Source of the DNA: Bacteroidia bacterium
GTDB lineage: Bacteria > Bacteroidota > Bacteroidia > J057
NCBI GenBank assembly: GCA_041753595.1
Contig: JBGSTW010000013.1
Span: 1-64,000, forward strand
DNA length: 64,000 bases
Reading direction: 5' to 3'
The translations under genes and the position numbers were made by a program. Shown here piece after piece: positions 12,224 to 32,934 of the stretch. The notes under the pieces were generated by a model that did no database searches, had not been told where the DNA came from, and worked only from the letters and a program-made list of their open reading frames with translations. Each line of letters begins with the position of its first letter. Within the stretch, counting starts at the first letter, position 1.

Positions 12224-15172
12224 TCAGTGAACAATCTGAATGAGGCTTGTTCCGGGCAAATTTCCGGAATTCCAGCGTAATGCATACACTCCATTGGCCA
12301 CATCCCCTACCGACACGACCACATCGCCGTTTACATCGGTCATCTTAGCTGATTTCCATACCAACTTACCTGATAGGTCGTAGAGGTTGAGCGAAACCAT
12401 TTGTTGGGTAATGCCGCTGAAATGGAGTTTCCAGCTTCCGTTGTTTGGGTTAGGATATACGGTAACGCTTGTTCCTGCTGAAGGGTCAGTAATGGAAGTA
12501 GGCCGCTCGCCTATTACTACTATTTTTTGCGTAGCTGCTCCACCGCAGCCTGCATTCCCCTGAGACTGCAACGTAGCGAGGTATGAACCGGCCACCTGGT
12601 ATTGATAATTTACGACCTTGCTGGTGTCTGTCTGTCCATCGCCAAAACTCCATATCCGGCTCACGCTTCCGGGAGTTTGGTCGGTAAACTGGATAGATTG
12701 TCCCAAAGAGCGATTCATGAGGGTATCAGAAACTGCTATGGAAACCGCCAGGCCGCCAGGCCTTGCCCGGGCGATCACCCTGCGCCGAAGGCACGAAGGG
12801 TTAGAGGCAATTTTCCAGTCAAATATTCCCGGATAGGCACCTCCCGAAAGGGTAGAACCCGTAATGTTGATCACCCCCGGCTGCACCAAAGGATAATTTA
12901 CGCCTGAAGAAACAGCCAGGAGATTGCCTGTGCCGCTGATCTCCAGCAGGTAGGTCTTCCGGGATTCGATGTCAAAATCCACGGGTAAAATTTGCTTACC
13001 AGCCTGAAGTACTTTCGAGGTGCTGTTAATGATTTGCCCGAGGGTATCTTTCAATACAATGAAGGCAAAACCTGCACCGGTGGCATAAACCGTAACCGAT
13101 TCGAGGGTAAACCCCTGCAATGCTTCAAACCTGAGGGCACCCAATGCGGGAGACAAAGACCTGCCAATAGTATCGGCCAAACCCGCCCATACAGGTTCAT
13201 ATCCTTCTGCGTAAAAAGCAGTATCGGCCAGCAAAGGAGGGGTAAGAAACAGAGCGCCTTTTCCGAGCAATTGACCTCCGGTTGACCGGGAATACCAACG
13301 CACATCTCCGCTCAGCACCTGGGCCTGAAGCAGTGCGCGGGCGCCTTGGCAAGCCTCACCGGCTGTAACGGAGGGAATAGGACCGGTGGCAATAGTAAAG
13401 GTCGCTTCCCCATAGTTGTCGAGGGGGCGGTCGTCCGGCTGGTTATTTACTGAAATAATTTCTACCTGCATCCTGTAGGTGCCCGGCGAAAGCGAAGGGC
13501 CTGTAACTACCACGGGCTGTACCCCTCCGACGGGTATATTACCGGCCCAGGCGGTGGTATCCCAGTTTTGGCTATCGAAAGTGTAGCGGATAAGGGCGGT
13601 AGTCACAGGCAGGTTGCCCAGGTTTTTCATCACTACCACCGGAAGGGGATTGGGACTGCATACCTTTGCGGGCAGGTTCAGCACCTCTACAAATTCTACA
13701 TTCCGGTCATTGACAGGAGGCACCGGTATATGGCCCTGGCTAACGAGGTATTGGAAAGCGGCGCCGAGGTTGATCAGGCCGCGGCCATAGTCGTTATCTT
13801 CACCTACAGGTCCGAGATCCGTGGCAGAAAAATAAAGAGCAAGCTTGATCTGTGTTCCGGTGAGGTAGGGGAAAGCCTCCTTTAACAACACAATGGCACC
13901 CGTTACGTGCGGAGAGGCCATGGAAGTGCCCGACAAATTGCCATAAGTTCCATTAGGCAAGCTCGAACGCACATTCACGCCTGGCGCCGACACCTCCGGC
14001 TTAATCAGCAGTGCTGCCGTATCCCCGCAAATGGAAGGCCCCCGGCTGGAAAAATTGGCGATTGGAATCGAGGCAACGCTGGCTGCAACAGCACCTACAC
14101 AGAAGGTATTGACCAGATCGAGGTTGATATTTTTGGGAGGGGTAATGGTAGAGATGCCCGGACCACTATTGCCCGCAGAGAAAACCACCGCTATACCCGC
14201 CGTTTCGAGCGCAGTGAGCGTGCCTACATACAGGCTCTGGCATTCCGCCGAAAGTCCCCCGTTGAACCAGGAGTTGTTGATGGCATCTGGCATATCGTTG
14301 ATGGTCCCAGGGTCATTGTCCGGGTCCAGCGCCCATTGAAACGAAGCGATCGTTTTGTCGGTTGTAGATCCGCCTCCACAGATGCCCTGGGCCGCAATCC
14401 ACAAACCATTGAAAGCTACGCCGATGGTGTCGCGGGTGACGGGGTCGAGGCCCACCATGGTACCCACCGTATGGGTTCCGTGTCCGTCGCAGTCGTTAGG
14501 CGTGGTGCTGGTGCCGCTCGGATCGAACCATGACTGGGAGTCGCCTGCATATTTGCCGCGGTAGCGCGCTTTAAAAGCCGGATGCTCCGGATCAACCCCG
14601 GTATCCATGCTCATGGCGATGCGGGAGTAACCCGAATAACCCATTGCCCACAAGGCGGGAGCACCGATGGTTACCAGCCCGATTTCTTTGCCATTGGCCA
14701 CGGTAATACCCTTGGGCATAGTTGGCTCGCGGTAATAGTCTTCGAGAAATACCGGGTGGTTAAGGTCCAGGGAAGCCACTTCCGGGTGAGCAGCTATTGT
14801 TCCAATGGAAGAGGCATTTACCTTCACAAAAACGGCATTCACAATCCAGAAAGGACGGATGGAATTAACTTCAACCCCCTCCTGTGCACGTAACCACTGC
14901 AGGAAATCGGGCTGGGTGGCCTCCGCTTTTGCCTGCAGGCGCGTAATCACCTGAAAAGCTCTCTCCTCCAGCGACGCCTGGCGAAGGGTAAGCTCCTGCT
15001 CCAGCGCCGGAAGATTCACCTGGTTCTGAAACAGAATGCAGATGTCGTAGGTAGCAGCTCCAGTCTGCATTTCGGCAGCCAGTTCGGGGGAGATCTGAGC
15101 CGCTAGCTGTGCATAGGCGGGCATTGCCCCTGCGCCCAGCAAGAGCCATGCGCCTAAGAGGTATTTTTTCAT
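12224..15172 (-). CDS. S8 subtilisin-family serine peptidase with PKD domain and T9SS C-terminal sorting domain (paralogue 2 of 3)
   Basis: Motifs DTGVDPEHPAF, HGTHTVGT and GTSMASPHVTG. PKD motif WSFGDGQTDTS. C-terminal domain VTVYPNPNNGSWKLHF...VYALRWN. ATG at 15172 (MKKYLLGAWLLL); the ORF track extends upstream to 15223. Confidence 0.9.
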   Translation of the reverse strand: MKKYLLGAWLLLGAGAMPAYAQLAAQISPELAAEMQTGAATYDICILFQNQVNLPALEQELTLRQASLEERAFQVITRLQAKAEATQPDFLQWLRAQEGVEVNSIRPFWIVNAVFVKVNASSIGTIAAHPEVASLDLNHPVFLEDYYREPTMPKGITVANGKEIGLVTIGAPALWAMGYSGYSRIAMSMDTGVDPEHPAFKARYRGKYAGDSQSWFDPSGTSTTPNDCDGHGTHTVGTMVGLDPVTRDTIGVAFNGLWIAAQGICGGGSTTDKTIASFQWALDPDNDPGTINDMPDAINNSWFNGGLSAECQSLYVGTLTALETAGIAVVFSAGNSGPGISTITPPKNINLDLVNTFCVGAVAASVASIPIANFSSRGPSICGDTAALLIKPEVSAPGVNVRSSLPNGTYGNLSGTSMASPHVTGAIVLLKEAFPYLTGTQIKLALYFSATDLGPVGEDNDYGRGLINLGAAFQYLVSQGHIPVPPVNDRNVEFVEVLNLPAKVCSPNPLPVVVMKNLGNLPVTTALIRYTFDSQNWDTTAWAGNIPVGGVQPVVVTGPSLSPGTYRMQVEIISVNNQPDDRPLDNYGEATFTIATGPIPSVTAGEACQGARALLQAQVLSGDVRWYSRSTGGQLLGKGALFLTPPLLADTAFYAEGYEPVWAGLADTIGRSLSPALGALRFEALQGFTLESVTVYATGAGFAFIVLKDTLGQIINSTSKVLQAGKQILPVDFDIESRKTYLLEISGTGNLLAVSSGVNYPLVQPGVINITGSTLSGGAYPGIFDWKIASNPSCLRRRVIARARPGGLAVSIAVSDTLMNRSLGQSIQFTDQTPGSVSRIWSFGDGQTDTSKVVNYQYQVAGSYLATLQSQGNAGCGGAATQKIVVIGERPTSITDPSAGTSVTVYPNPNNGSWKLHFSGITQQMVSLNLYDLSGKLVWKSAKMTDVNGDVVVSVGDVANGVYALRWNSGNLPGTSLIQIVH

Positions 15173-15182
15173 GCTAAAATAA

Positions 15183-18155
15183 TCAAGGCGTAACGGTGAT
15201 TCGCTGAACCGACCGCTGGCCATTCAGATAAAGGGTAATGGCGTAAAATCCGGCGGGCTGAGCAGAAAGGTCCAGTACAAATTTTCCTGATTTCCCGTTC
15301 AGTTCTCCTGCTTTGATCTGGCGACCGGAGAGGTCGGTAAGCAACCACTGGGCAGCAGCAGGATTTTCCCATTCGTAGCTTACTTCGAAATAGTCGTTGC
15401 CAACATTCGGCCTTACTTCCCATTTTCCTGGAAAAGCAAAAGCAGGATCGATGGCAGTAGGAAAGCCTTCAGCCACGATTTGCAGGGTGTCGGCATCACC
15501 ACAACCGGTGCTACCTGTAGCAAACAAAGTAACGCGGTAGGTGCCAGGGAAGAGGAAGGTGTGATCCGGGTTTTGGGAAGTGCTGGTGGAGCCGTCGCCA
15601 AAATTCCAAAGCCAGGAAGTAGCTCCCTGCGACTGGTCGGTAAAGGTCACTACAGGGTTTGCCTGCAGGTTGATGGTGGTGGCGCTGGCAGCGATAGCAG
15701 CAGCTACGGTACCTGCTCCCACGGTGGCGGTAGCAGGCGTTCTTCCGCAAATACCTTCGTATTCAATTTCCCAGTCGTAGAAGAAATAGTAAAATTTGAG
15801 GGCAGAATTGTCGAGGTTGGAACCGATAATTTCCAGCACTCCGGGAATCACATACGGAAGTTGCAGGTTGGAGAAACTACGGTAAAGACCTCCCACACTG
15901 CCAGGGTTAAGGGCCAACTGCAGATTCTGACCAGCGGGTATGGTAAAATCCAGGTTAACCCTTGACTCACCAACAGGTACGTTTACAATTTTGGTTAACA
16001 ATATCTGGCTGGATGCACTGCGCAAAACAATCACCTGAAGACCTGCTACATTGGCGTAAATCTTCACTGACTTCAGCAAAAATGATTGGTCTGCGCTGAA
16101 GATCATATAGTTGTTCAGGGTGTTTTCATAATTACCGAGGTCGCCGGTATTGCCCGATTTCCCGATATTCTGGGTTTGCACCTGGGCTGCATAGTAGGTC
16201 GTATTGGCAGCAAGTGCAGGGGTAAAGAGGCTCGCACCTGTGGATACAAGCGTTCCACCTGTCTGGTTGGTGTACCACTTTACCTTTCCGGTATCTACCG
16301 AAGCGGTAAGCAGGGCCTGGCTGCCAGCACATACCGTGGCATTGGTGGTAACCGGGGCTTTGTCTCCGGAAATGGTAAATGACTTCTGGATCTTGTTATT
16401 CAGGTAGAAGTAGTCATTCTGACCATTGACCGTAATGGCTTCTACCACTAAGGTGTATTGTCCGGGAGCCAACGTGGCATTCGGGAACAGAATAGGCTGG
16501 GTAAGTCCGGCGGGTAAGCCACCCGTCCAGTTGAAGGTATCGGGGGTACCTCCGTCGTAGGAGTACACCATTTTGAGAGAAGTAAGCGGCTGGGTACCCT
16601 GATTTTTGATGCTGATAAACGGCAAAATAGAAGAGGTACAGTTGAGGTCATTTATATTCAGCACCTCCAGTACGGCTACATCCACCTCCCGCGAAACAGT
16701 CACCGGGGTATTGCCTTTACTTACGAGGTAGTTGTAAGCGGCCAAGACATTGATCATGCCATTCCCGTAGTCATTGTCTTCGCCCGGAGTGCCGAGGTCA
16801 TCAGCTGTGAGGAACAAGGCCATTTTTATTTCGCGACCCGTGAGGTACGGGAATGCCTCTTTGAGCAAAAGTACAGCACCCGTAGCGTGAGGAGACGCCA
16901 TGGAGGTACCTGTGAGCAATTGATATCCGCCATTGGGGCCAGCTGAGCGCACATTTACGCCCGGGGCACTTACCTCCGGCTTGATGGTGAGCGTTCCGAC
17001 AGGTGCGGGGCAAAGCGAAGGTCCCCGGCTGGAGCCGGGGTCAACGGGGTAATTGTTGTTGTTGCCATTGACCATGGCCACACAAAAAACATTGACGGTG
17101 TCAACGTTTATATTTTTGGGAGAAGTGATGGTGGATACACCGGGGCCATCATTTCCTGCGGCAAAAACCACAGCAACGCCTGCGGCTTCCAGGGCCACAA
17201 GGGCATCGCGGGTGGTAGAAGTACATTCCTGTCCGCCGGTTCCGCTGTTCCATGAATTGTTGATGGCATCGGGAATATCGTCGGTGGTGTTCGAGTTGTT
17301 GTCGGGGTTCAGGGCAAATTGAAAAGAAGCAACGGTGCTTACATTGCCACAACCGATCGCTGGAGCCGCCATCCACAATCCACCCGGGGCTACCCCGATG
17401 GTGTCTCTGGTAGCAGGATTGAGTCCCATGATCGTACCGGTCACGTGCGAGCCGTGGTTAGAACTGGGATCACAATCGGCAGGAAATGTGGTTCCGTTGT
17501 TGCTGTACCATGCCTGGCTGCCGGGTTTAAAATTTCCGAGGTAGCCCGCCTTGAGCGCGGGGTGCGTGCCTTGTACGCCTGAGTCGATGATATAGGCTAC
17601 CCGTCCGTATCCGGTATATCCGAGCTTCCACATTTCAGGGGCATGGATGGCGGTATGCCCGTTTTCGTGGCCATTGGCTGAGGCGATGCTTGCCGTAGCT
17701 GCGGTGGTCATGTCCAGCTCCATCGGTGCCTCCCAATCGATCCATTCTATATCCGTACGGTTGCTCAGAGCCGCGATGGCATCGTGATTGGCGCGCAATA
17801 CGACCGCATTTACAATCCAGATTGGCTGAACTGAATAGGGCTCAACGCCCGAAATCGTTTGAATGAAACTCAACAGCGGGCCCTGGGTGCTGGCGGCTTT
17901 GGCCTGCAGGGTTTGTACAACCACCCGTCCGCGGGTTTCCAGCGAAGCATTTGAGCGACGGAGGCTGAGCTCCAGGCTGTAAATATCTACCTTATCGGTA
18001 AGCGATACCACAATCTGCTGAAAGGCCTCGGGGTCCTGGGCCATGCGCATGAGCAAATCGGTGCTTACCCTTGTACCATCTAATATAGGTTGTGCTGTGC
18101 TTATCAATGGAAGCCAAAACACCAACAAAGCAAGGTTGCGTAAAACCTGTTTCAT
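15183..18155 (-). CDS. S8 subtilisin-family serine peptidase with PKD domain and T9SS C-terminal sorting domain (paralogue 3 of 3)
   Basis: Motifs DSGVQGTHPAL, HGSHVTGT and GTSMASPHATG. PKD motif WNFGDGSTSTS. C-terminal domain ...FEVSYEWENPAAAQWLLTDLSGRQ...FYAITLYL. ATG at 18155 (MKQVLRNLALLVFWLPLISTA). Only 10 bp separate its stop from the start of paralogue 2. Confidence 0.9.
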   Translation of the reverse strand: MKQVLRNLALLVFWLPLISTAQPILDGTRVSTDLLMRMAQDPEAFQQIVVSLTDKVDIYSLELSLRRSNASLETRGRVVVQTLQAKAASTQGPLLSFIQTISGVEPYSVQPIWIVNAVVLRANHDAIAALSNRTDIEWIDWEAPMELDMTTAATASIASANGHENGHTAIHAPEMWKLGYTGYGRVAYIIDSGVQGTHPALKAGYLGNFKPGSQAWYSNNGTTFPADCDPSSNHGSHVTGTIMGLNPATRDTIGVAPGGLWMAAPAIGCGNVSTVASFQFALNPDNNSNTTDDIPDAINNSWNSGTGGQECTSTTRDALVALEAAGVAVVFAAGNDGPGVSTITSPKNINVDTVNVFCVAMVNGNNNNYPVDPGSSRGPSLCPAPVGTLTIKPEVSAPGVNVRSAGPNGGYQLLTGTSMASPHATGAVLLLKEAFPYLTGREIKMALFLTADDLGTPGEDNDYGNGMINVLAAYNYLVSKGNTPVTVSREVDVAVLEVLNINDLNCTSSILPFISIKNQGTQPLTSLKMVYSYDGGTPDTFNWTGGLPAGLTQPILFPNATLAPGQYTLVVEAITVNGQNDYFYLNNKIQKSFTISGDKAPVTTNATVCAGSQALLTASVDTGKVKWYTNQTGGTLVSTGASLFTPALAANTTYYAAQVQTQNIGKSGNTGDLGNYENTLNNYMIFSADQSFLLKSVKIYANVAGLQVIVLRSASSQILLTKIVNVPVGESRVNLDFTIPAGQNLQLALNPGSVGGLYRSFSNLQLPYVIPGVLEIIGSNLDNSALKFYYFFYDWEIEYEGICGRTPATATVGAGTVAAAIAASATTINLQANPVVTFTDQSQGATSWLWNFGDGSTSTSQNPDHTFLFPGTYRVTLFATGSTGCGDADTLQIVAEGFPTAIDPAFAFPGKWEVRPNVGNDYFEVSYEWENPAAAQWLLTDLSGRQIKAGELNGKSGKFVLDLSAQPAGFYAITLYLNGQRSVQRITVTP

Positions 18156-18329
18156 GAAAGGTAATTGATAATGATCAGAAAGGGGGAAGAGTTGAATTCG
18201 AAAGATAAAACAAGCCCGGCAAAAATTCACCCGATTTCGTGGCATAGGCCCCGCAATATCCATCAACGGTTATAGGTTGGCTTTTCCAGGTTCCTGTCGT
18301 AATTTTCAAAATAAACCATATACAGCCCC

Positions 18330-20543: not shown

Positions 20544-21161
20544 TCAGGCATCCGCATCCTGGGGCCGGGTTTTCAGCACTATTTTCTTTTTGTTTCCCGT
20601 ACCTACCTGAGTCGCGGCCTGCTTATTGGCCAGCGATTCGGCGAGCTTGGCGCGTTTTTCAGCTTCGGCTTCCGGGGTCATGGTGGCAAATTCGAAGTTC
20701 AGGGCTTCCCGCTCAAAATGGCTATAGTCGTATTCGGGCGTCATGGTCAGGCACTCGGTGGGGCAAACGGTGGTGCAGAGCCCGCAAAAGCAGCACTTGG
20801 CAAGGTCGATGTCGAAAGTGGCCAGTTCGAGCCTTTTTTTGCTGCCGTCGGAAGTAGTGCCGAGGTCGTCCACCGCCTTGAATCCGTCGATGTCGATGCA
20901 GTCCACGGGGCAAATGCGCGCGCATTTATCGCATACAATGCAATCGTCCTCTTCGAGGTGTAGCTGATAGCGGCCATTGACAGGCGTAGGCACCGTTTCG
21001 CGAGGGTACTGAACCGTAACCGGACCATCGGGACGGTCAAAATAGCCCGCCGCCTGGATGCCCAGTTGATTTCGCCGGGTACCCGCCCGCCCAAAATGCC
21101 TGCCGGTAAGGAGCAAGCCGCCCACGAGGGTCTGCCAGGTCTGGAGGAATTCGCGTAGCAT
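20544..21161 (-). CDS. nuoI: NuoI-like 2x[4Fe-4S] ferredoxin (NADH-quinone oxidoreductase subunit I family)
   Basis: Two CxxCxxCxxxCP motifs: CIVCDKCARICPVDC and CCFCGLCTTVCPTEC, with NuoI-like spacing. ATG at 21161; the ORF track starts at a TTG at 21167. Confidence 0.75.
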   Translation of the reverse strand: MLREFLQTWQTLVGGLLLTGRHFGRAGTRRNQLGIQAAGYFDRPDGPVTVQYPRETVPTPVNGRYQLHLEEDDCIVCDKCARICPVDCIDIDGFKAVDDLGTTSDGSKKRLELATFDIDLAKCCFCGLCTTVCPTECLTMTPEYDYSHFEREALNFEFATMTPEAEAEKRAKLAESLANKQAATQVGTGNKKKIVLKTRPQDADA

Positions 21162-21260
21162 GGTCAAAGGTACTGGTTTTCGACTTTCCGCGACTGTGGG
21201 GATTTATTTTTCAAAACAGTTCCTTCGCTTGCATACATTTCCCGGCAGCTTCCACTCCGC

Positions 21261-24200
21261 TCAGGATTTGTCTTCGAGCACCTTGCGGATGGCTTCCATG
21301 TGGCTGGTAAACTGGCCGATGTCGCGCACCAGCTGGGCCATGTAGTCGGCGTTCAGGGCTTTTGTTTCCAGGAAAATGCGGCAGATTTCCTCCCACCTGT
21401 TTTTTTCTTTTTCTGAAAAACGGTCCATCATCCGCTTGAATGCCAGCATATTGGCCTCTGCCCCACTGGCCAGGGTTTGCGATTCGGCTTCGTAGTGGCC
21501 CATGATGAGGACATCCAGCTCGGTATCGTTCATCACGGGCGACACCTTTTCGGCGAGGCGACCCATGTTGCGGTAAGAGCCCTGCAGGCGGAAAGGCGGT
21601 TCACGGCGATAAGCCTCTGCCTGCGCAGCGGAGGAAATGTAGTTTTGGTTTACCTTCAGCACCACCTCGCGCACCACCAGCAGCTTTTTCAGCACCGACA
21701 CGGCGTCGTTCAACTCGTCGGGAGAGAAATTGCTGGAAAACTCAGCACCGGCCAGATCCCCCGTTTCGGCGAGGCGATAGAGCGTGTAGAGGTCCTCCTG
21801 CGGGCGTGAAGCGAGCGAAGCCAGCACCGGATTGCTGGTGAGGGCATTTTCGATATAGCTCAACCGGAAAGCTGATTCATTGCCACCGAGCATGTCGCCG
21901 AGGTTGTAGATATCTGCCCGGTTGGCGAGCATGTCGGGTATCGTAAACCGCTCGCCCGACTCGGTATAGGGGTTTCCCGCCATCACGATTGCCAGCCGCC
22001 TCCCGCGAAAATCATAAGTGCGGCTTTTGCCTTTGTACACGCCTTCTACCTTGCGCTGGGCATCGCAGAGGGAGATGAATTTTTGTAAAAATTCGGGGTG
22101 GGTATGCTGGATGTCGTCGAGGTAGATCATCACGTTGTCGCCCATCTCAAAAGCGAGGTTGAGCTTTTCCAGCTCCTCGCGGGCAGCGGCGTTGGTAGCA
22201 GCACCAGGGTCGAGCGAGGTTACCTGATGACCCAGCGAAGGGCCGTTTATTTTCATAAAAATCAACCCCAGCCGCTGCGCTACATACTCCACCAGGGTCG
22301 TTTTGCCGTAGCCTGGCGGGGATATCAGAAGCAGCATGCCCGAACGGTCGTTGCGCGATTGCTCGTCGGCTGTGCCGATTTGCTTGGCAAGGTTGGCCCC
22401 GATCATCGGTAGGTAGACCTCGTTGATCAGGCGGTTGCGCACAAATCCACTCATGGGCCGCGGCCGGAAATCGTCGAGGCGGATCTGGGCGGTAAATGCC
22501 TGCACCAGCCGGGTTTTGAGCGAAGTAAACGTGCGGAAAAGCGGTGCCAGCTCGAGGTCGAAGTGGCGCATTTTCCCCGAAAAACCGTGATAATCGAGCG
22601 CATAGCTGCCCTGTTCGATCAGCTTGTGCTCCCCGCGCATACCGGGTATGACTTCTTCGCTCGAAGCGGCATGCACCGATTTCTCCTTCCAATCGTCGAT
22701 ATACATCAGCCCGGCAACCTCAGCGGCTGCATGGTAGGGGTCGGCGATACCTTCTTTGGCCAGGTAGGAGCGCACCCAGCCGAGCATGAGCCGATACCTC
22801 TCCACCGAATGATTTTCGAGGGCGGTTACCTGCGCCTGAAAAGCGGTGGCTGCCTTTATTTTTTTCAGAAAAACAAAAAATCCCTTAAACATCGTACCGG
22901 CCAGCTTGCTGATGGGCAGGTCGGCAGATCGGGAGCTGATATCCATCAGGAAATCAACCGCCGCGGCAGCCTCTTGTGGGTCGCCCCAACCTGCTGCGGC
23001 AAACGCGGCAACCTTCTCCTGCAATTCTGCCTTAATTTCCGCTGCCCAGGCCGCGCCGATATCCAGCTTGCGCACCGCATCGGCCGCTTCGAGCCGGGCT
23101 TTCCACACGGGCAATTCTTCAGCGCTCAGTCCTGCAAACAAAAACAACCGCCCCAGGGTGCGTACCGAAGGCGCATAGGCCAGCAGGCCCAGGCCCGATT
23201 TCAAGCGGAGTAAGCCCTCCACGATCAAGGTGGCGTCGTGGTCGTGCACGCCTTTCACGTATCCTTCCTGAAACCGGTCGGCCATGAAGGTGCGCACCTG
23301 CTCGCCCGTGTCGCCCAGCGGATCAAATGCCGGGGTTTCCAGCAGCTTATAGGCGAGGTATTCGGCGCGGTAAACGGCGGTATTTTCGGAGGGAAGCGAT
23401 TGGCTCCAAACGGGACGGGTGGCATCCAGTTCGGGGTCGTTGATGGGTTCGAAAAAGCGGGTGCCCGTAAGGTGGTAAGACAGCTGGTCGTGCTGCAACG
23501 CCACGGTAGCTTCGAGGGGGTGCTGCTGCACCGAAAAGCGGTGATTGCCCAGTTTCAGCACATGGGCCTGGTCCTCAAATATCTCTTTCCGGTCGCGGAG
23601 CTGGCGTACGGCTTCTTCGCGGAGGCCCTGCAGGCGGCTCATCAACTCGGTGGCACGGGTGGGGTCGTTGAGGCTTTGGAGTTGGGTGGCGAGGTCGCGC
23701 ACCTTCACCGCCATGAGGTCGGCAGCAAAGTAGGCGTTTATTTCGTCGGGGCTTTCCATGCGGGCGAGGCGCTGGCGGATGCCTTTCAGGATGCGGTCTC
23801 CGGCATCGGCGAGGGAAGCAGATTTACGGTTACGCTCCTCCACGAGGGACACGCGCCGGGCTTCGAAGGTCTGCACTACTTCTTCGCGCTTGAGGGCAAG
23901 GTCGGTGGCAAATTCTTCAAAATCAGCAAATTTCCCATCCAGCTCCTCCAGTTGCACGGTGAGGCGGGTGAGGTATTCGTCGCATTTTTCGGGCGAGTCG
24001 CTGAGCTCAAAGTAGTTGGAGATCGACTGCGAAAAGAGCCGGAGCTGCGCGTGAAATTCGGCCGAGGCCTCGGCTTTGCGCAGGTCTTTGCGGCGGTTGC
24101 GAAGGGCGCTGCGAATGGCGTTTATTTCGGAGAAAAGAACCGAGATACGGTCAATGATGGCCGTGGTTTGGGTAGCGTCTTCGATGGGCAGGCTGCCCAC

Positions 24201-26099
24201 GGTTTCGATCAGCAATTCGAGCTGACGGGCGGCTTCGTCGAGCAGCTTTTCTACCTTATTGGCTTCGGCTACCTTGGTTACGGCTTCAGCTTCTTTGCGG
24301 AGGCGGGCGGCGGTTTCCTGGTATGGCTGCAGGGCTTCGGCTTTCAGCAAAAAAGCCACACAGTCACGGGCCAGGGCCAGCGATTGCGCGCCGATGCGGT
24401 TTTCCCAGTCAGAAAGGGCTTCGAGGTCGGCGTAGCGCAGATCCCGCAGAGTAATCACTTCTCCTTTCAGCCCCCGCAAATCGCTGAGGTAACCGACAAA
24501 TTCCTGCACTTGGCGGGCACCGTGGCGGCGTACTTTGTCGAGCAGGGTCGTAGCTTTTTCTGCAAATGTACCCACCGAATCGCGGGCCAGGGCCTGCAGA
24601 CGGCGCACTTTTTCAAATTCATCTATGGCGGCGGAAGCGGCAGCTTTTACCCCCGTGACCGGCACCGAAAGCTCAAAAGCTTCTTTATTTTTCAGCCAAT
24701 AATACCCGTCGAGGATATCGCCTGCTTTTTTGGATACATCGAGGTAGAGGCTGTTGTAGGGATCGGGTTTTTCGAGCAGGGTAAGCAGCTCGCGGCATTC
24801 GGCCAGGCCTTTCACGAGGTCTTTGTTGCCCACACGTGCCAGCCACGAATCGCTCACGGTATCGGCCGAGGCGGTATCGATGCCGTAAGGGGTCGTCCAG
24901 ACCTGAATCGTGTGCCGCCTGCCGGGCTCGGCTTCGGCCCTGAAATAGCAGAGCTCCCCGCCCGGGAAAAGCGAAAATCCCTGGCAAACAATGGGCGTAT
25001 CGGCCTGCTGGGCCACGAGGTTGTACGGAAAAAGGGTGTAGTCGCCCAGCTCGGGGTTGGTGAACACGTAGAGGAAATCTTCGCCGTTCGGGGAAGTAAT
25101 CCTTTTTTCAAACTGAAGGCCGGGGGGTATTTTTTCAAACACCTTGTAACCGCCCGTTTGGAGGTAAAAACCGCTGGGGAAAATAAGCCCCTGGTTGTCG
25201 GGCAGGAGTACGCAGGCCCCTTGCAGTGCATCGATCCGCACGGCGGTAGCCAGTTTTTCGTTCACCACGATGTAGCGAAAGTCGCGTTCCTGGTAGGGTT
25301 TTACCTTGAGTACGATGAGGTTTCCTACAAAAGCGTAGTAGATCTCAGCGTCGTCCAGGGTCTGGTCGGGCTGGGTGACGGCTTCGGAGAAAATGCCTTT
25401 GCCGGTGTCGGTATTGTCCTCCACCTTCACGGTAAGGTCACCGCCGATGGTTTCTACAAAGATGTGGTCCTCAATGGAAATATGCGGGTGCTTGCCCTTG
25501 CGGTGCATGTCGCGGGTGGTGCGCTTCCACTGAAACTCGTGCTGATCGGGGAAACGAAACTCGTGGTCGAAGCGGTTGCCCTGGTAGTGGAGCTCGTTTT
25601 CGCGTACGGTCCACTTAAAGGTGCGGATGTCGGAGATGGTTTTCCCGGTCTGAAAAACCATGAACAGGTTGGGGCCAATGACCGCAAATTTCGAGAAGAC
25701 CGTTTCTCGGTAGTATTTGTAGAGGTTGTTAAAATCTTCGAGAAAACGAGCGTCTTCGATCATCTCCAGCGAAAGCGGCTTAAAGCTGAAGTCGCTGGTT
25801 TCGAATTGAAAAACGCTGAATACGTCGGCCAGTTTTACTTCTGTCCGCAACCCGATGTGCACATTGTAGCCAAACAAGAGCGTGTCTCCGATCGCGGCCA
25901 TGTCGCGGGGGAGGCAATTGTTGTCGGTGGTGACATGGTTCGTGGCGGCCAGCTTGGGTTCGCGTGCGCCGAAAATTTCTTTCCGGGCGGCGTTCAGCTG
26001 GTCCATACGGCTGCGCAGGTCCTGGGCCTGGGTGTCCAGGCGTTGTTTCAGGATGTCGTAAGCGCCCGTATCGAGCGCCACGTTTTCAGGTTGTGACAT
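21261..26099 (-). CDS. giant (~1612 aa) multidomain protein with a single AAA_5/MoxR-type AAA+ ATPase domain near residue ~1230; function unknown
   Basis: Walker A LLLISPPGYGKTTLVEY. Walker B VMIYLDDIQH. Followed by RRLAIVMAGNPYTESGERFTIPDMLANRADIY, where MAGNP resembles the MoxR/dynein-type NP motif. The N-terminal ~450 aa are beta-rich, the middle ~700 aa are strongly helical, and the C-terminal ~250 aa are helical. ATG at 26099, with a TTG at 26105. Confidence 0.85.
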   Translation of the reverse strand: MSQPENVALDTGAYDILKQRLDTQAQDLRSRMDQLNAARKEIFGAREPKLAATNHVTTDNNCLPRDMAAIGDTLLFGYNVHIGLRTEVKLADVFSVFQFETSDFSFKPLSLEMIEDARFLEDFNNLYKYYRETVFSKFAVIGPNLFMVFQTGKTISDIRTFKWTVRENELHYQGNRFDHEFRFPDQHEFQWKRTTRDMHRKGKHPHISIEDHIFVETIGGDLTVKVEDNTDTGKGIFSEAVTQPDQTLDDAEIYYAFVGNLIVLKVKPYQERDFRYIVVNEKLATAVRIDALQGACVLLPDNQGLIFPSGFYLQTGGYKVFEKIPPGLQFEKRITSPNGEDFLYVFTNPELGDYTLFPYNLVAQQADTPIVCQGFSLFPGGELCYFRAEAEPGRRHTIQVWTTPYGIDTASADTVSDSWLARVGNKDLVKGLAECRELLTLLEKPDPYNSLYLDVSKKAGDILDGYYWLKNKEAFELSVPVTGVKAAASAAIDEFEKVRRLQALARDSVGTFAEKATTLLDKVRRHGARQVQEFVGYLSDLRGLKGEVITLRDLRYADLEALSDWENRIGAQSLALARDCVAFLLKAEALQPYQETAARLRKEAEAVTKVAEANKVEKLLDEAARQLELLIETVGSLPIEDATQTTAIIDRISVLFSEINAIRSALRNRRKDLRKAEASAEFHAQLRLFSQSISNYFELSDSPEKCDEYLTRLTVQLEELDGKFADFEEFATDLALKREEVVQTFEARRVSLVEERNRKSASLADAGDRILKGIRQRLARMESPDEINAYFAADLMAVKVRDLATQLQSLNDPTRATELMSRLQGLREEAVRQLRDRKEIFEDQAHVLKLGNHRFSVQQHPLEATVALQHDQLSYHLTGTRFFEPINDPELDATRPVWSQSLPSENTAVYRAEYLAYKLLETPAFDPLGDTGEQVRTFMADRFQEGYVKGVHDHDATLIVEGLLRLKSGLGLLAYAPSVRTLGRLFLFAGLSAEELPVWKARLEAADAVRKLDIGAAWAAEIKAELQEKVAAFAAAGWGDPQEAAAAVDFLMDISSRSADLPISKLAGTMFKGFFVFLKKIKAATAFQAQVTALENHSVERYRLMLGWVRSYLAKEGIADPYHAAAEVAGLMYIDDWKEKSVHAASSEEVIPGMRGEHKLIEQGSYALDYHGFSGKMRHFDLELAPLFRTFTSLKTRLVQAFTAQIRLDDFRPRPMSGFVRNRLINEVYLPMIGANLAKQIGTADEQSRNDRSGMLLLISPPGYGKTTLVEYVAQRLGLIFMKINGPSLGHQVTSLDPGAATNAAAREELEKLNLAFEMGDNVMIYLDDIQHTHPEFLQKFISLCDAQRKVEGVYKGKSRTYDFRGRRLAIVMAGNPYTESGERFTIPDMLANRADIYNLGDMLGGNESAFRLSYIENALTSNPVLASLASRPQEDLYTLYRLAETGDLAGAEFSSNFSPDELNDAVSVLKKLLVVREVVLKVNQNYISSAAQAEAYRREPPFRLQGSYRNMGRLAEKVSPVMNDTELDVLIMGHYEAESQTLASGAEANMLAFKRMMDRFSEKEKNRWEEICRIFLETKALNADYMAQLVRDIGQFTSHMEAIRKVLEDKS

Positions 26100-26121
26100 G
26101 GCCAAAGGAAGTTTTCAGGGA

Positions 26122-28299
26122 TCAGGAAATGCCCGCCTGGTCGGCTGTTTTGTCGCTGATACCGAGAGATTCGACCACGCCCATGAGCTGCTGCAGCACC
26201 CCGCGCTGCGACTTATCGTTGGTCTGCGCCATCATTTTCAGGATCAGCGCCGACATCGAGAGGTTTTTGAGGTCGTCGGTCGATACCTTAAACTGGGCAA
26301 TAAACTCGCGCAATTTTCCCGTAAACTGGTTGTCGGAGCCGTCGCCAATCAGCTGGTTTTTGAGGCCATTGAGGGTGGAGCTGTGCTCAAAGAGGTTATC
26401 GACGTATTTGGCACTGACGACCGAACGGGTGATGCGGTCGAAGAACTCCTGCTCACCCCCGATGATGTCGATGTTGGCAGATTTGAGGGCTTCGGCGATG
26501 ACCATGGCCTGGGAAGCGGCCACGTCCTTCTGCACGTTGATGCGGGCGAGCTCGACCACTTTCTGCATGTCGAGGCGGAGCTTAAACTCCTCGTGGTCTT
26601 TGCCCACGCCGTCGAGCTGCTTCATGGCTTCGGCTTTGGCCTGTACGCCTTTGGCATCGGCTACGGCTTTGAGCTCGATAACGGTAGCTTCGCTGCGGCC
26701 CATTTTTTCTACGGCAGAGGCTTTCACTTCCGTTACTTCGGCTTCTACCTTGCCTTGTTCCGATTTCAGGGCGTTTTCGGTTTGTCCGAGGCGCTGGTTG
26801 GCATCGGCCTGGGCTTCGCCTTTGAGCTGTATGCCCTGGGCTTCGGCTTCGGCTTTCATGCGCAGCACATTGGCTTCCGCAAAACCTTCTTTTTCCTTGG
26901 CATGGGCCTTGGCTTCGAGCACGCGGGCTTCGGCTAGTCCGAGGGCGGCATGTTCTTCGGCCACGGCATCGGCCATTATTTTTTTGGCTTCGGCGTCCTT
27001 GTCCACGGCTTCGCGCTCGGCGGTAGCCACGATCAGGCGGGTTTGAGATTCGAGCTGGGCAGCTTCTTTTTGGGCTTCAGCGCCTTTTATTTTCACCACC
27101 AATTGCTCCTGAGCCTTTTGCTCGGCGGCGAGGATAGCTACCTTTTTGGAGCGCTCGGCCTCGGCAAAAGCAGAGGTATCTTTTATTTTTTCCTGCTCTT
27201 CTACCACGGCACGCTCCACCACCACGCGGTCGCGGATCACGTCCTGGATATTTTTCTTTTCCTCCTCCACGGCCTTTTCTTTGCCGATCTGCGCAATGGC
27301 CACGATGCGTTCGCGGTCGGTAGATTCGAGCTGGCGGTCGCGCTCCACTTTTTCGCTTTCTACGGCCAAGGTGCGCTCTTTGCTCTTCTGGGCCACGATC
27401 ACGTCGCGGGTTTTATTCTGCTCTTCGATGTCGATCTCCCGCTCGCGGGCGATGCGGGCGCGCTCGGATTTGGTCAGCTCTTCCTGCTGCACCCGCTTGA
27501 TTTCGGCTTCTTCGCGTGCTTTTACCGAGGCAACCTCCCGCTTCTGGATTTCTTCTTTTTCTGAAAGCTGGCGATTCAGCTCCAGAATGGCTTCCTGGGC
27601 TTCTACGTCCTGGCGCTTGATTTCCTTTTCCTTGTTGCGCTGAATTTTGTTGGCGAGGGTAATCTGGTGGCTGGTCAGCTCGCGGATTTTCTTGATACCC
27701 TCGGCGTCGAGGATGTTGTTTTCGTTGAGGAAGTCGATGGGGGTTTGCTCCAGGAAGTCGATGGCGCAGTCGTCGAGTACGTAGCCGTTGAGGTCGCGGC
27801 CGATGAGGTTCATGATTTCTTCGCGGAATTTTTCGCGGGCGTTGTACAGCTCCACAAAATCAAACTTCTTGCCCACGGTTTTGAGGGCTTCGGAGAACTT
27901 GGCTTCGAACAGGAGATTGAGCAGCTCGTGGTCGGAGGCACGGGCACAGCCGATGGTTTGGGCTACCTTCTTCACGTCGTCCACCGTGGGATTTACCCGC
28001 ACAAAAAATACCACCTTGATGTCGGCCCGGAGGTTGTCTTTACAAATAAGGCCCTCTTTGCCTTCGCGGGAAATCATCACCTGCTTCAGGGATATCTCCA
28101 TGGTTTCGGCATTGTGCAGGAGCGGGATGACCCACATACCTTCAAAAGCGACTCGGGTATTGCCGTAGCCGGTGCGCACCAGGGCTTTTCCCTGGGTTAC
28201 TTTTCGGTAAAAAAGGGAGATCAACGTCACGTAGCCAAAAATGGCCACCAGTACAATGACGCCGAAAATGATCCCAATGTTGAGTAGGAGGTTGTTCAT
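26122..28299 (-). CDS. flotillin-family SPFH/Band-7 protein (long form, 725 aa)
   Basis: N-terminal TM helix IGIIFGVIVLVAIFGYVTLI. The SPFH domain spans RTGYGNTRVAFEGMWVIPLLH...TQ. A long E/K/A-rich coiled-coil follows, then a flotillin C-terminal region. Confidence 0.9.
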   Translation of the reverse strand: MNNLLLNIGIIFGVIVLVAIFGYVTLISLFYRKVTQGKALVRTGYGNTRVAFEGMWVIPLLHNAETMEISLKQVMISREGKEGLICKDNLRADIKVVFFVRVNPTVDDVKKVAQTIGCARASDHELLNLLFEAKFSEALKTVGKKFDFVELYNAREKFREEIMNLIGRDLNGYVLDDCAIDFLEQTPIDFLNENNILDAEGIKKIRELTSHQITLANKIQRNKEKEIKRQDVEAQEAILELNRQLSEKEEIQKREVASVKAREEAEIKRVQQEELTKSERARIAREREIDIEEQNKTRDVIVAQKSKERTLAVESEKVERDRQLESTDRERIVAIAQIGKEKAVEEEKKNIQDVIRDRVVVERAVVEEQEKIKDTSAFAEAERSKKVAILAAEQKAQEQLVVKIKGAEAQKEAAQLESQTRLIVATAEREAVDKDAEAKKIMADAVAEEHAALGLAEARVLEAKAHAKEKEGFAEANVLRMKAEAEAQGIQLKGEAQADANQRLGQTENALKSEQGKVEAEVTEVKASAVEKMGRSEATVIELKAVADAKGVQAKAEAMKQLDGVGKDHEEFKLRLDMQKVVELARINVQKDVAASQAMVIAEALKSANIDIIGGEQEFFDRITRSVVSAKYVDNLFEHSSTLNGLKNQLIGDGSDNQFTGKLREFIAQFKVSTDDLKNLSMSALILKMMAQTNDKSQRGVLQQLMGVVESLGISDKTADQAGIS

Positions 28300-28329: not shown

Positions 28330-28992
28330 TTATTCAAAAGGTGAAACCAGATAAATGTCTTTTTCCGGGTCAAATTCAACGATGAGTGCCTGGGTGCCTT
28401 TTTCCAGGGCAATATCGCCTTCAGCGGCGGCATTGAGCTGAAAATGGCCTTCGTCGGTTTGTAAACTGATGCTGCCCATGCGGCCCGGAGAGATTCGGGT
28501 AACGACCTCGCCTATTTTCCCCACCAGCTCTTTCTTTTCTTTACCGCCCGCATTCATTTTCGCAAACATGCCCTTGAAAGGACTGGTAAATACCTTGGTG
28601 AGAAACAGGCCGATGAGGAGATTGGGAATCAGCCAGATCAGGAAAAACAAAGCCAAAGCACCCCCTATCAGCCGCTCGCCGATGAGCGAACCCGCCCACA
28701 GAAAAAAGGTGAAAAAGGTGAAAAATACCATGAAGGGTACTTTTCCAAGGTTGAAAAACGCGAGGGTTTCGAGTAAAAATCCCCCACCGGCGCCATCGCC
28801 ATCGTGCATGTCGCCATCGTGGCTGAGGTCGGCATCGTGGCTGAGGTCCGCGTCGTGGTCGGTGTGTATGTCGAGAAAATTGAGGTCGAGGGCCCCAAGA
28901 AATACCGTGACCCAGTACACCAGCACCAGCAGGAGGAGCAGGGTGTAAAAGATATGTACCGGAGAAAATGCAAGTCGAAACAGTTCAGCCAT
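28330..28992 (-). CDS. NfeD-like (YqiJ/YuaF-like) membrane protein, flotillin partner
   Basis: N-terminal TM helix and an acidic His/Asp loop HDADLSHDADLSHDGDMHDGDG. Further TM helices, then a C-terminal OB-fold-like soluble domain GKIGEVVTRISPGRMGSISL...LIVEFDPEKDIYLVSP. ATG at 28992, with a TTG at 28998. It sits 30 bp upstream of the flotillin gene. Confidence 0.8.
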   Translation of the reverse strand: MAELFRLAFSPVHIFYTLLLLLVLVYWVTVFLGALDLNFLDIHTDHDADLSHDADLSHDGDMHDGDGAGGGFLLETLAFFNLGKVPFMVFFTFFTFFLWAGSLIGERLIGGALALFFLIWLIPNLLIGLFLTKVFTSPFKGMFAKMNAGGKEKKELVGKIGEVVTRISPGRMGSISLQTDEGHFQLNAAAEGDIALEKGTQALIVEFDPEKDIYLVSPFE

Positions 28993-29215
28993 ATTCAAAA
29001 TATTACGACATGCCCATACACTACTGATCTATCCTGCCAGCTTATCGCTTTCAAGGTATTCACAGTAAAAAAGCAGATTTTACCCGAAGGTTGAAACAGG
29101 GAACAGGAATTTAATCAGTATAATTTTCTTCCCCGCTTGCTAACACTTCAGTCTATGCCTGGGCAATACACAGCGCGGCTCCGTCACTTTTAAAAGAACT
29201 ATTGACCTTCTACTC

Positions 29216-31914: not shown

Positions 31915-32934
31915 ATGACACTTCCTCTTACTCCCATCCGCAATGGTTTCCTCGCGACCTTGCTCTTTGCCACGGCTGGTCTTTGCCAAACACGTGCCTT
32001 TGGACAAAGCCAATTGACGGCCATTGAAACAACTGAAACTATGACCATCGATGGACTGGGAAATGAGGCGATCTGGTCGGCAGCCACCTGGTATCCGATT
32101 GATCAGACCTGGATCGGAACACCGCCCTCCTCAACAGATTTTTTGGGCAAATTCAAGGTTGTCTGGGATCAAAACTTCCTCTATGTGCTCACAGAAATCA
32201 CCGATGAAATATTGAGCGACGACCACCCCAATCCGCTAACCAATTGGTGGGACGACGACGGGATTGAGATCTTCCTCGACGAAAACTTCTCCAAAGGCAA
32301 TCATCAATTCAACTACAATGCCTTTGCCTATCACGTGAGCACGTTCTATGATGTGGTGGATCTCGGAACTGACCAAAATCCGCATTTATACAACGACCAT
32401 ATCACCACGGTCCTGAGCAATTCCGGGACGGTATATACCTGGGAGTGCAGGATAAAAATATTCAACGACCAATTTGTCTATGGTGGCAACAACACGCCGG
32501 TGTCTCTAAACGCAAATAAAATCATGGGCTTCTCCATGGCCTACAATGACAATGACGCCGGCACTTCGCGCGAAAACTTCATGGGTTCCGGAGTCGTGCC
32601 CGGCACAGATAAGAATGTTGGCTACCTCACGGCAGATTATTTTCAGCAACTGACGCTCGTGGCTTCCGGTGCGTCGTCCATCTCTCCCGAAAATGCTTTG
32701 GCATTGGGGGTAAAGGTCTATCCCAACCCCGCATCTGACCGATTCACCCTCGACCTCGAACATCCGCGTTGGGAGAACCTCGGGCTCTTTTCGATCACCG
32801 GAAAGCAGGTGCTGAACCAGGAAATTCGTGGCTTGCAACAAGTACAGGTGAATGTGGCCGATTTTCCGCCGGGGATCTACCTCTTGAAGGTGAGCGGCGC
32901 GCAGATCGCCACAACCAAATTGCAGATAAAATAG
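31915..32934 (+). CDS. CBM9-like carbohydrate-binding domain protein with T9SS C-terminal sorting domain
   Basis: Signal peptide. The CBM9/DOMON-like region is W/D-rich: NWWDDDGIEIFLDENF. The C-terminal sorting domain reads VKVYPNPASDRFTLDLEHP...GIYLLKVSGAQIATTKLQIK. Confidence 0.75.
   Translation: MTLPLTPIRNGFLATLLFATAGLCQTRAFGQSQLTAIETTETMTIDGLGNEAIWSAATWYPIDQTWIGTPPSSTDFLGKFKVVWDQNFLYVLTEITDEILSDDHPNPLTNWWDDDGIEIFLDENFSKGNHQFNYNAFAYHVSTFYDVVDLGTDQNPHLYNDHITTVLSNSGTVYTWECRIKIFNDQFVYGGNNTPVSLNANKIMGFSMAYNDNDAGTSRENFMGSGVVPGTDKNVGYLTADYFQQLTLVASGASSISPENALALGVKVYPNPASDRFTLDLEHPRWENLGLFSITGKQVLNQEIRGLQQVQVNVADFPPGIYLLKVSGAQIATTKLQIK

Follow-up and report, generated by a model that had tools for sequence, protein, structure and literature searches.

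A DUF3686-family ATPase, encoded on the minus strand at positions 21261-26105 of contig JBGSTW010000013.1 from a Bacteroidia bacterium (J057; assembly GCA_041753595.1), is the last gene of a tight three-gene operon with the order YqiJ-like membrane protein, flotillin, and ATPase, all on the minus strand. The window referred to below is the whole stretch of DNA that was analyzed, i.e. positions 1-64,000 of this contig. The protein is soluble and cytoplasmic and is built from an N-terminal helix, a beta-propeller, a long helical arm, a small beta domain, a helical bundle, an AAA+ module with its lid, and a C-terminal helix. The operon represents the short version of an envelope-stress operon, CesT/Tir-PspA-YqiJ-flotillin-AAA+, that is found in Bacteroidota and other phyla. 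It is supposed, with about even confidence, that the ATPase acts as a cytoplasmic, ATP-driven remodeler of flotillin/PspA membrane assemblies. This reading is based on the family and its architecture, the predicted folds, the intact catalytic residues, the lack of a membrane segment, synteny, the Psp link, and the literature.

The gene and its operon

The reading frame proposed by the initial annotation, which had been made from the sequence without database searches, was recovered in full on the minus strand, and all strings quoted there are present in its translation (FGYNVHIGLRTEVKLADVF at residue 78, GYGKTT at 1265, IYLDD at 1327, and MAGNP at 1375). The three genes of the operon are the following:

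28330-28998, minus strand: YqiJ/YuaF (NfeD-like) membrane protein of 222 aa; three hydrophobic segments are followed by a soluble beta domain at the C-terminus
26122-28299, minus strand: YqiK-type flotillin of 725 aa (29% identical to E. coli YqiK over 440 aa; BLASTP, E=2e-45)
21261-26105, minus strand: ATPase open reading frame (ORF), 1614 codons from TTG plus stop codon

A protein in public collections is 100% identical to the ORF product and has a length of 1612 aa. Since this is the length of the database protein, the true start is probably the ATG at 26099 rather than the TTG, as far as the sequence can tell. This ATG is located 22 nt past the flotillin stop codon, and from this gap it follows that the ATPase gene is co-transcribed with the flotillin and the NfeD-like gene. 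Residue numbers are given throughout in ORF numbering (from the TTG), which corresponds to the numbering of the N-terminal structural model plus two. A promoter/terminator scan near the ATPase gene with a sigma-70 model, which is not applicable to Bacteroidota, gave nothing above shuffled sequence. An open frame of 952 codons runs antisense to the ATPase gene (23238-26096, plus strand); it is taken as a shadow ORF, because the minus-strand gene is strongly supported.

The membrane scaffold that had been suspected next to the ATPase proved to be a genuine flotillin. Its alignment to YqiK begins at residue 11, at the membrane anchor, and the layout comprises an N-terminal membrane anchor, the SPFH domain, an E/A/K-rich coiled coil, and a C-terminal extension (residues 447-725). 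This extension of about 280 residues is unalignable to the 553-aa E. coli YqiK, and the protein is about 170 aa longer; the median length of the flotillins in related operons is 711 aa. The ATPase may dock at this extension. Relatives are named ‘flotillin family protein’ or YqiK in the sources, and the window flotillin has no match to Pfam Band_7 even at E<=10, nor a Pfam match of any kind. The strongest AT skew of the window (-0.326, positions 26001-28000) overlaps the flotillin gene and is probably a composition effect of its Glu/Lys/Ala-rich (A-rich) coding strand, which lies on the minus strand. The YqiJ-like protein matches Pfam YqiJ_N below the cut-off (E=0.0037) and aligns with E. coli YqiJ over 175 aa (BLASTP, E=7e-4).

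Domain organization of the ATPase

Two AlphaFold2 (AF2) models were used for the domain map. The first encompasses the first 478 residues and was derived from an alignment of 63 sequences (predicted local distance difference test (pLDDT) 91, predicted template modeling score (pTM) 0.89); the second encompasses residues 840-1614 (45 sequences, pLDDT 89.4). Listed from the N- to the C-terminus, the protein contains:

25971-26069, minus strand: N-terminal long helix, residues 13-45 (AF2 model m79d84c83cd82; helix 11-43 in model numbering)
24894-25955, minus strand: irregular beta-propeller, residues ~51-404; about 28 strands form six to seven blades of four strands each
23571-24845, minus strand: long-helix, coiled-coil-like arm, residues ~421-845 (AF2 helices 421-472, heptad score, periodicity)
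24087-24338, minus strand: DUF7902 (PF25472) inside the arm, residues 590-673 (91.6 bits against a cut-off of 26, E=3.6e-26)
23445-23561, minus strand: small five-strand beta domain, residues 849-887 (AF2 model m0d9e5a552c79)
22686-23378, minus strand: all-helical bundle, residues ~910-1140, with eleven helices of 10-23 residues each (AF2 model, helices at 913-1136)
22377-22592, minus strand: linker helices before the ATPase, residues 1172-1243 (AF2 model and conservation)
21891-22373, minus strand: AAA+ alpha/beta core, residues ~1245-1405 (AF2 model, core at 1258-1401)
21426-21878, minus strand: multi-helix lid, residues 1410-1560 (AF2 model and conservation)
21267-21413, minus strand: single long C-terminal helix, residues 1565-1613 (AF2 model), poorly conserved

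The N-terminal region had been described as beta-rich, in agreement with the strands modeled at residues 51-404, and as free of any assignable motif, which no longer holds: the beta-propeller is the core of Pfam DUF3686 (PF12458), which matches residues 29-469 over profile positions 1-448 of 448 (E=1.4e-180, 601 bits against a cut-off of 25). The N-terminal model is closed by helices at residues 421-472. Since DUF3686 and DUF7902 are named yet functionally uncharacterized, these regions do not belong to a well-characterized family, which is what, according to the initial annotation, would make the architecture routine.

The arm consists of about 400 residues of long helices. The heptad score is raised across it, and in the family alignment the averaged hydrophobicity is periodic at 3.5-3.67 residues between ~450 and 812; conserved helix breakers occur within the arm only at G548, P705, ~813, and 846-853. 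Weak matches connect it to the coiled-coil proteins TEX12 (PDB) and LmuB (PADLOC). The coiled coil of about 700 aa and the nearly continuous helix from 500 to 1050 that had been proposed thus have to be shortened: the periodicity ends at ~812, the five-strand domain interrupts the helices, and the bundle follows as a second separate domain. Conserved positions of the small beta domain are G853, F857, and T882, the helical bundle carries the conserved motif Y949-G952-H954-D955-D957, and the linker helices include the invariant FVRN (residues 1221-1224). The C-terminus is helical, as had been predicted, owing to the lid helices and the terminal helix. Conservation in the MAFFT family alignment is highest in the ATPase core (1200-1420) and in the lid (1481-1560). 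No transmembrane segment is predicted in the ATPase, the highest 19-residue hydropathy being 1.28.

The AAA+ module

The catalytic module had been placed near residue 1230 and is in fact centered at ~1265-1400, about 35-150 residues further toward the C-terminus. Motif conservation was scored in 67 cluster representatives from a library clustered at 50% identity. The elements of the module are:

22296-22319, minus strand: Walker A, PPGYGKTT, residues 1263-1270; GYGKTT kept in 66/67
22104-22130, minus strand: Walker B, MIYLDD and then IQH, residues 1326-1334; acidic pair D1330-D1331 kept in 66/67
22011-22052, minus strand: beta-hairpin at the pre-sensor-1 position, residues 1352-1365, between the Walker B and sensor-1 strands
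21969-21983, minus strand: sensor-1 strand MAGNP, residues 1375-1379; N1378 kept in 66/67
21912-21938, minus strand: PDMLANRAD, residues 1390-1398; R1396, the arginine-finger candidate, kept in 67/67
21564-21599, minus strand: invariant PFxLQGSYRNM in the lid, residues 1503-1514; R1512, the sensor-2 candidate, kept in 67/67

The motifs, whose possible degeneracy had been raised as an objection, are therefore intact, and the arginine expected after MAGNP is present at the finger position. In the family this motif takes the form PDMLxNRAD; the role of R1396 is one which we take from its position relative to sensor 1 (compare ‘LPEAxLDRF’ of MoxR). Walker B departs from the canonical hhhhDE, as the acidic pair (22113-22118) is Asp-Asp and never Asp-Glu across the representatives. 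In 66 of them, the pair precedes an invariant Ile-Gln-His. The Asp-Asp pair may indicate slow, switch-like hydrolysis or a catalytic role of the conserved Gln/His.

Pfam matches to residues 1258-1381 are weak (AAA PF00004, 30.8 bits; AAA_5, 24.5 bits with a cut-off of 22, E=2.9e-5). Structural comparison of the modeled module gave the highest scores for CbbQ, a MoxR AAA+ protein (16.5, with 235 of 267 residues aligned), and a dynein motor (15.3), followed by NorQ (14.8), midasin (14.6), and dynein again (13.4). Lower scores were obtained for ClpA (13.1), ClpB (12.8), NVL/CDC48 (11-12.5), and Vps4 (10.4-11.1). The closest fold among solved AAA+ modules is thus of the MoxR/dynein/midasin type. 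The strands of the pre-sensor-1 hairpin are modeled at residues 1352-1357 and 1360-1365 (strands 513-518 and 521-526 of the AF2 model), and, because of this hairpin and the best fold matches, a typing as MoxR/dynein-type AAA+ is supported in the predicted structure at the level of the fold. Residues 1288-1305 break helix 2 and are modeled as a loop with short helices, with no hairpin, and the first lid helix is separated from the GSYR sensor-2 motif by several helices (1429-1494; AF2 model). The characteristics of the classical AAA clade (Vps4/CDC48/FtsH), i.e. no pre-sensor-1 hairpin, a second region of homology with two arginines, and the best fold match, were not found.

Dynein and midasin among the best matches, together with an arm and a cargo-type propeller that recall the layout of a motor, bring to mind a structural tether or motor, i.e. 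a mechanoenzyme serving a structure unrelated to flotillin, such as the surface or gliding machinery of Bacteroidota. The single AAA module per chain, instead of six, argues against this, as do the occurrence of the family in metagenome-assembled genomes of Planctomycetota and Verrucomicrobiota and the lack of any conserved neighbor hinting at a track or cargo beyond the flotillin/PspA set; such a role is very improbable.

The fold scores of the HCLR-clade unfoldases ClpA and ClpB, close behind those of the MoxR type, are compatible with a membrane-protein extractor or unfoldase of flotillin microdomains, a counterpart of FtsH lacking the protease, whose ring would thread and unfold clients corralled by flotillin/NfeD. 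SPFH scaffolds do partner with AAA+ machines, e.g. HflK/C with FtsH (PMC13220708), and the strict flotillin synteny described below would suit such a function. On the other hand, an aromatic-hydrophobic-Gly pore-loop motif is missing from the conserved segment (KINGPSLGHQVTSLDP) that connects strand 2 with helix 2, where pore loop 1 would be expected, Walker B lacks the catalytic Glu, the top fold matches are non-threading remodelers, and the operon contains no conserved protease. This alternative is therefore considered unlikely; the missing aromatic pore loop and the Asp-Asp Walker B would rather point to a slow conformational remodeler than to a threading unfoldase.

Conservation of the locus

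Related loci were collected with the C-terminal 465 aa as query from one genome per species, and 80 loci were fetched of at least 567 matches. Flotillin is encoded upstream of the ATPase in 53 of the 57 loci with at least 5 kb of upstream DNA, in 52 of them on the same strand. A YqiJ-like gene is present in nearly all flotillin-bearing loci and is kept upstream in 58 loci. The genes for flotillin and ATPase abut in about half of the loci; elsewhere, one to three unrelated small genes lie in between. These inserted genes were considered as possible PspA genes and rejected, as they differ in kind (DUF559, DMP19, ABC ATPase, DUF3784, a second Band_7, and unassigned proteins). The triad of YqiJ, flotillin, and ATPase is maintained even in members that are only ~30% identical in the propeller, and the flotillin there matches Band_7. 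In the most divergent members, a gene for TelA (toxic-anion resistance, PF05816) adjoins the ATPase gene (L085:13001-14221, plus strand; L086 and L087:13502-14608, minus strand). TelA is a further neighbor of the envelope-stress type.

Genes for PspA/IM30 (PF04012, E=9e-41) were found in 23 loci and for CesT_Tir_1 (E=8e-51) in 19, in both cases directly upstream and on the same strand. A divergent gene for a regulator with HTH_3 and Peptidase_S24 domains (LexA/CI-type, self-cleaving) is present in 24 loci (e.g. L044:125-967, minus strand), where it is located upstream of the CesT-PspA-YqiJ-flotillin-ATPase operon, which suggests derepression of the operon through autocleavage of the repressor. 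In seven loci (L028, L031, L036, L043, L045, L046, and L055), the ATPase gene is directly followed on the same strand by a polyamine module, i.e. DUF4178, an unassigned protein of ~242 aa, DUF350, and a multi-transmembrane spermine/spermidine-synthase fusion. Neither the HTH_3/S24 regulator nor the DUF4178/DUF350/spermine-synthase module occurs in the window.

The same repressor, and the DUF559 endonuclease-like or DMP19 genes inserted in some loci, could also be expected if the operon served anti-phage defense or abortive infection, with the giant ATPase sensing infection and acting via the membrane scaffold. Large coiled-coil NTPases are common in defense systems, and PADLOC gave faint hits for LmuB and IetA (E ~3e-3). 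These matches are coiled-coil/P-loop noise far under the family thresholds, the inserted genes are not conserved, and the genes linked to the operon are those for PspA/CesT and polyamines rather than nuclease or toxin genes. As the family is also distributed broadly and stably inside whole orders, and as no features of mobile elements were found near the ATPase gene in the window, a role in defense is improbable.

Family distribution and database label

The initial annotation had called the layout uncommon. This does not hold for the family, for which a search at E<=1e-5 gave over 4,492 homologues sharing the layout from end to end, besides the matches in the species collection, and whose architecture has already been described (PMC11237479). 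The best 120 homologues, from Bacteroidota, Planctomycetota, and Verrucomicrobiota, have an identical Pfam composition, and nearly all of them comprise 1600-1880 aa. A search of 1.84 billion cluster representatives (50% identity) with the propeller only retrieved 711 representatives, and where the representative is full-length, the propeller is almost always N-terminal in a protein of 1500-1900 aa. In a MAFFT alignment with 66 representatives, the family is collinear from end to end, with an occupancy of ~1.0 over the 1614 residues. The window gene is one more orthologue of a known, experimentally uncharacterized family.

PF12458 bears the label ‘ATPase involved in DNA repair’, which NCBI has inherited as ‘DNA repair ATPase’. 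Apart from these names, the long helical arm is the one feature that would fit an SMC/Rad50-type repair ATPase. In SMC/Rad50 proteins, the arm splits the ABC head, with Walker A on the N-terminal side and the signature motif and Walker B on the C-terminal side; here, the distance from Walker A (1265) to Walker B (1327) is 60 residues, with both inside one C-terminal AAA+ domain. Because of this arrangement and of the propeller at the N-terminus, the SMC-like reading is contradicted. Pfam and NCBIfam gave no match to SMC_N, the ABC signature, a nuclease, or a DNA-binding domain, the NCBIfam and PADLOC models as a whole gave no meaningful match to the ATPase, and the conserved neighbors are all membrane or envelope-stress proteins. 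A function in DNA repair is given next to no weight, and the label, which the family carries throughout the databases and for which no support was found, is misleading.

Proposed function

In the proposed mechanism of membrane-scaffold remodeling, the AAA+ modules would assemble as a ring, with the invariant Walker A lysine, R1396 as a trans-acting finger, and R1512 as sensor 2. The propellers, held outward by the helical arms, would bind the flotillin/YqiJ scaffold on its cytoplasmic side, the target possibly being the long C-terminal extension of flotillin or, where present, PspA. ATP turnover would drive assembly, disassembly, or turnover of the membrane-bound oligomers under envelope stress. 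Conceivable analogues are the MoxR-type remodelers (CbbQ, NorQ, and RavA), midasin, and Vps4 acting on ESCRT-III.

Several points weigh against this mechanism or limit it. The single AAA module postulated by the initial annotation stands, as does its MoxR/dynein type at the level of the fold; membership in the MoxR group cannot be demonstrated at the sequence level. A comparison of the family with E. coli RavA by hhalign was non-significant (8.5% probability), and the family profile aligns with PDB sequences at the P-loop alone, with no significant match beyond it. A single-sequence search of PDB likewise retrieved P-loop matches plus the coiled-coil protein TEX12 and nothing else. Typical MoxR systems pair with a VWA/MIDAS partner; no gene for such a partner is present among the annotated conserved neighbor clusters or in the window neighborhood. 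PspA, CesT, and TelA are absent from the window, and 4 of the 57 loci have no flotillin nearby. In these four (L005, L007, L008, and L013), the ATPase is full-length, and neither a flotillin nor a YqiJ-like protein is encoded in the ~6.5 kb upstream of it or in the 10 kb downstream; linkage to flotillin is thus strong yet not obligatory. Ring formation, the geometry of the arms, and the binding target are points that we infer, and no experimental work on any DUF3686-family ATPase was found in the literature.

This family bears on how bacterial flotillin and PspA assemblies are dismantled or regulated. According to a review of 2025, a Vps4-like ATPase for PspA ‘appears absent in bacteria’ (PMC7619361). 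It is tentatively proposed, as a possible but rather doubtful extension, that the family is this missing counterpart, i.e. a MoxR/dynein-like ring that makes contact with the membrane via its long helical arms and propellers and that, once the envelope has been damaged, spends ATP on disassembling or recycling flotillin cages and/or PspA (ESCRT-III-type) polymers. If true, the family would represent a machine, evolved independently, that uses ATP to reset SPFH/ESCRT-III membrane scaffolds. As a large, strongly conserved ATPase with intact catalytic residues that is linked to flotillin/NfeD, and often to PspA/CesT, in several phyla, the family can credibly be put forward as the ATP-driven partner of the flotillin/PspA scaffolds in bacteria. 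The analysis corrects the ‘DNA repair ATPase’ label, establishes a domain map, and quantifies the synteny; its value lies in the family, not in the window gene.

Other genes of the window

A stand-alone NuoI-like 2x[4Fe-4S] ferredoxin is encoded 93 bp downstream of the ATPase gene (20544-21167, minus strand; TIGR01971, 94 bits, below the cut-off). It was rejected as a component of the system, as it occurs in 0 of the 80 related loci. The remaining neighbors are unrelated and comprise a DUF2214 membrane protein, a SnoaL-like protein, a short-chain dehydrogenase, and subtilases of the type IX secretion system. Two subtilases are tandem paralogues of ~1000 aa with Peptidase_S8, Ig_7, and PKD domains (12224-15223 and 15183-18266, minus strand). 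The type IX secretion sorting domain Por_Secre_tail is found on the first subtilase and on a CBM9 protein (31915-32934), and by these domains the window can be recognized as DNA of Bacteroidota.

Comparison with known systems

The closest described system is an operon reported by Ravi et al. (mSystems 2024; preprint 2020), which consists of CesT/Tir-PspA, flotillin, a YqiJ/YuaF protein with three transmembrane segments, and an ATPase (PMC11237479). This ATPase was described as a novel AAA+ domain joined to a coiled coil and a beta-propeller, with proposed roles in sub-membrane dynamics and as a chaperone-like factor. According to the same study, abbreviated operons (flotillin, YqiJ/YuaF, and sometimes the ATPase) are more widespread than the full operon, and a polyamine module is tied to the PspA-CesT operons. 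Its Table S3 lists for Dokdonia donghaensis the same gene order, ending with ‘Betapropeller+Coiled-coil+AAA-ATPase’. The window operon shares with this system the domain order propeller, coiled coil, and AAA-ATPase, the gene order YqiJ, flotillin, and ATPase, and the phylum; the full operon, including the divergent HTH and S24 gene, was found in 19-24 related loci. Because the census thus regenerates the full operon around DUF3686 proteins, these presumably belong to the same family as the ATPase of that study, in agreement with their architecture and synteny. The Dokdonia exemplar (the protein next to ANH61663.1) was equated with the DUF3686 ATPase by architecture and operon, not by alignment. 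The window differs in that the CesT/Tir-PspA dyad is missing, and the published description gives no AAA+ clade, additional beta domain, helical bundle, or Asp-Asp Walker B for the ATPase (PMC11237479).

With the MoxR remodelers (CbbQ, NorQ, and RavA) and the dynein/midasin modules, the ATPase has the pre-sensor-1 hairpin and an AAA_5 match just over the cut-off in common. Sequence identity to these proteins is low (~13-16%), Asp-Asp replaces Asp-Glu in Walker B, no VWA/MIDAS partner accompanies the gene, and the helix-2 insert is modeled as a loop and not as a clear hairpin. In addition, N-terminal domains of ~1250 aa precede the module, which have no counterpart in the compact chains of CbbQ and NorQ (267 and 254 residues). 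The spacing of the motifs is one which we take to be MoxR-like, namely ‘NP...G...P[DE]..L..R’ from sensor 1 to the finger and ‘GS.R’ at sensor 2.

In comparison with Vps4/ESCRT-III and FtsH/HflK-C, the ATPase has no MIT domain, protease domain, or transmembrane anchor. Its resemblance to these systems concerns the functional logic only: an AAA+ ATPase is genetically coupled to a protein of the PspA/ESCRT-III family and to a scaffold of the SPFH family.

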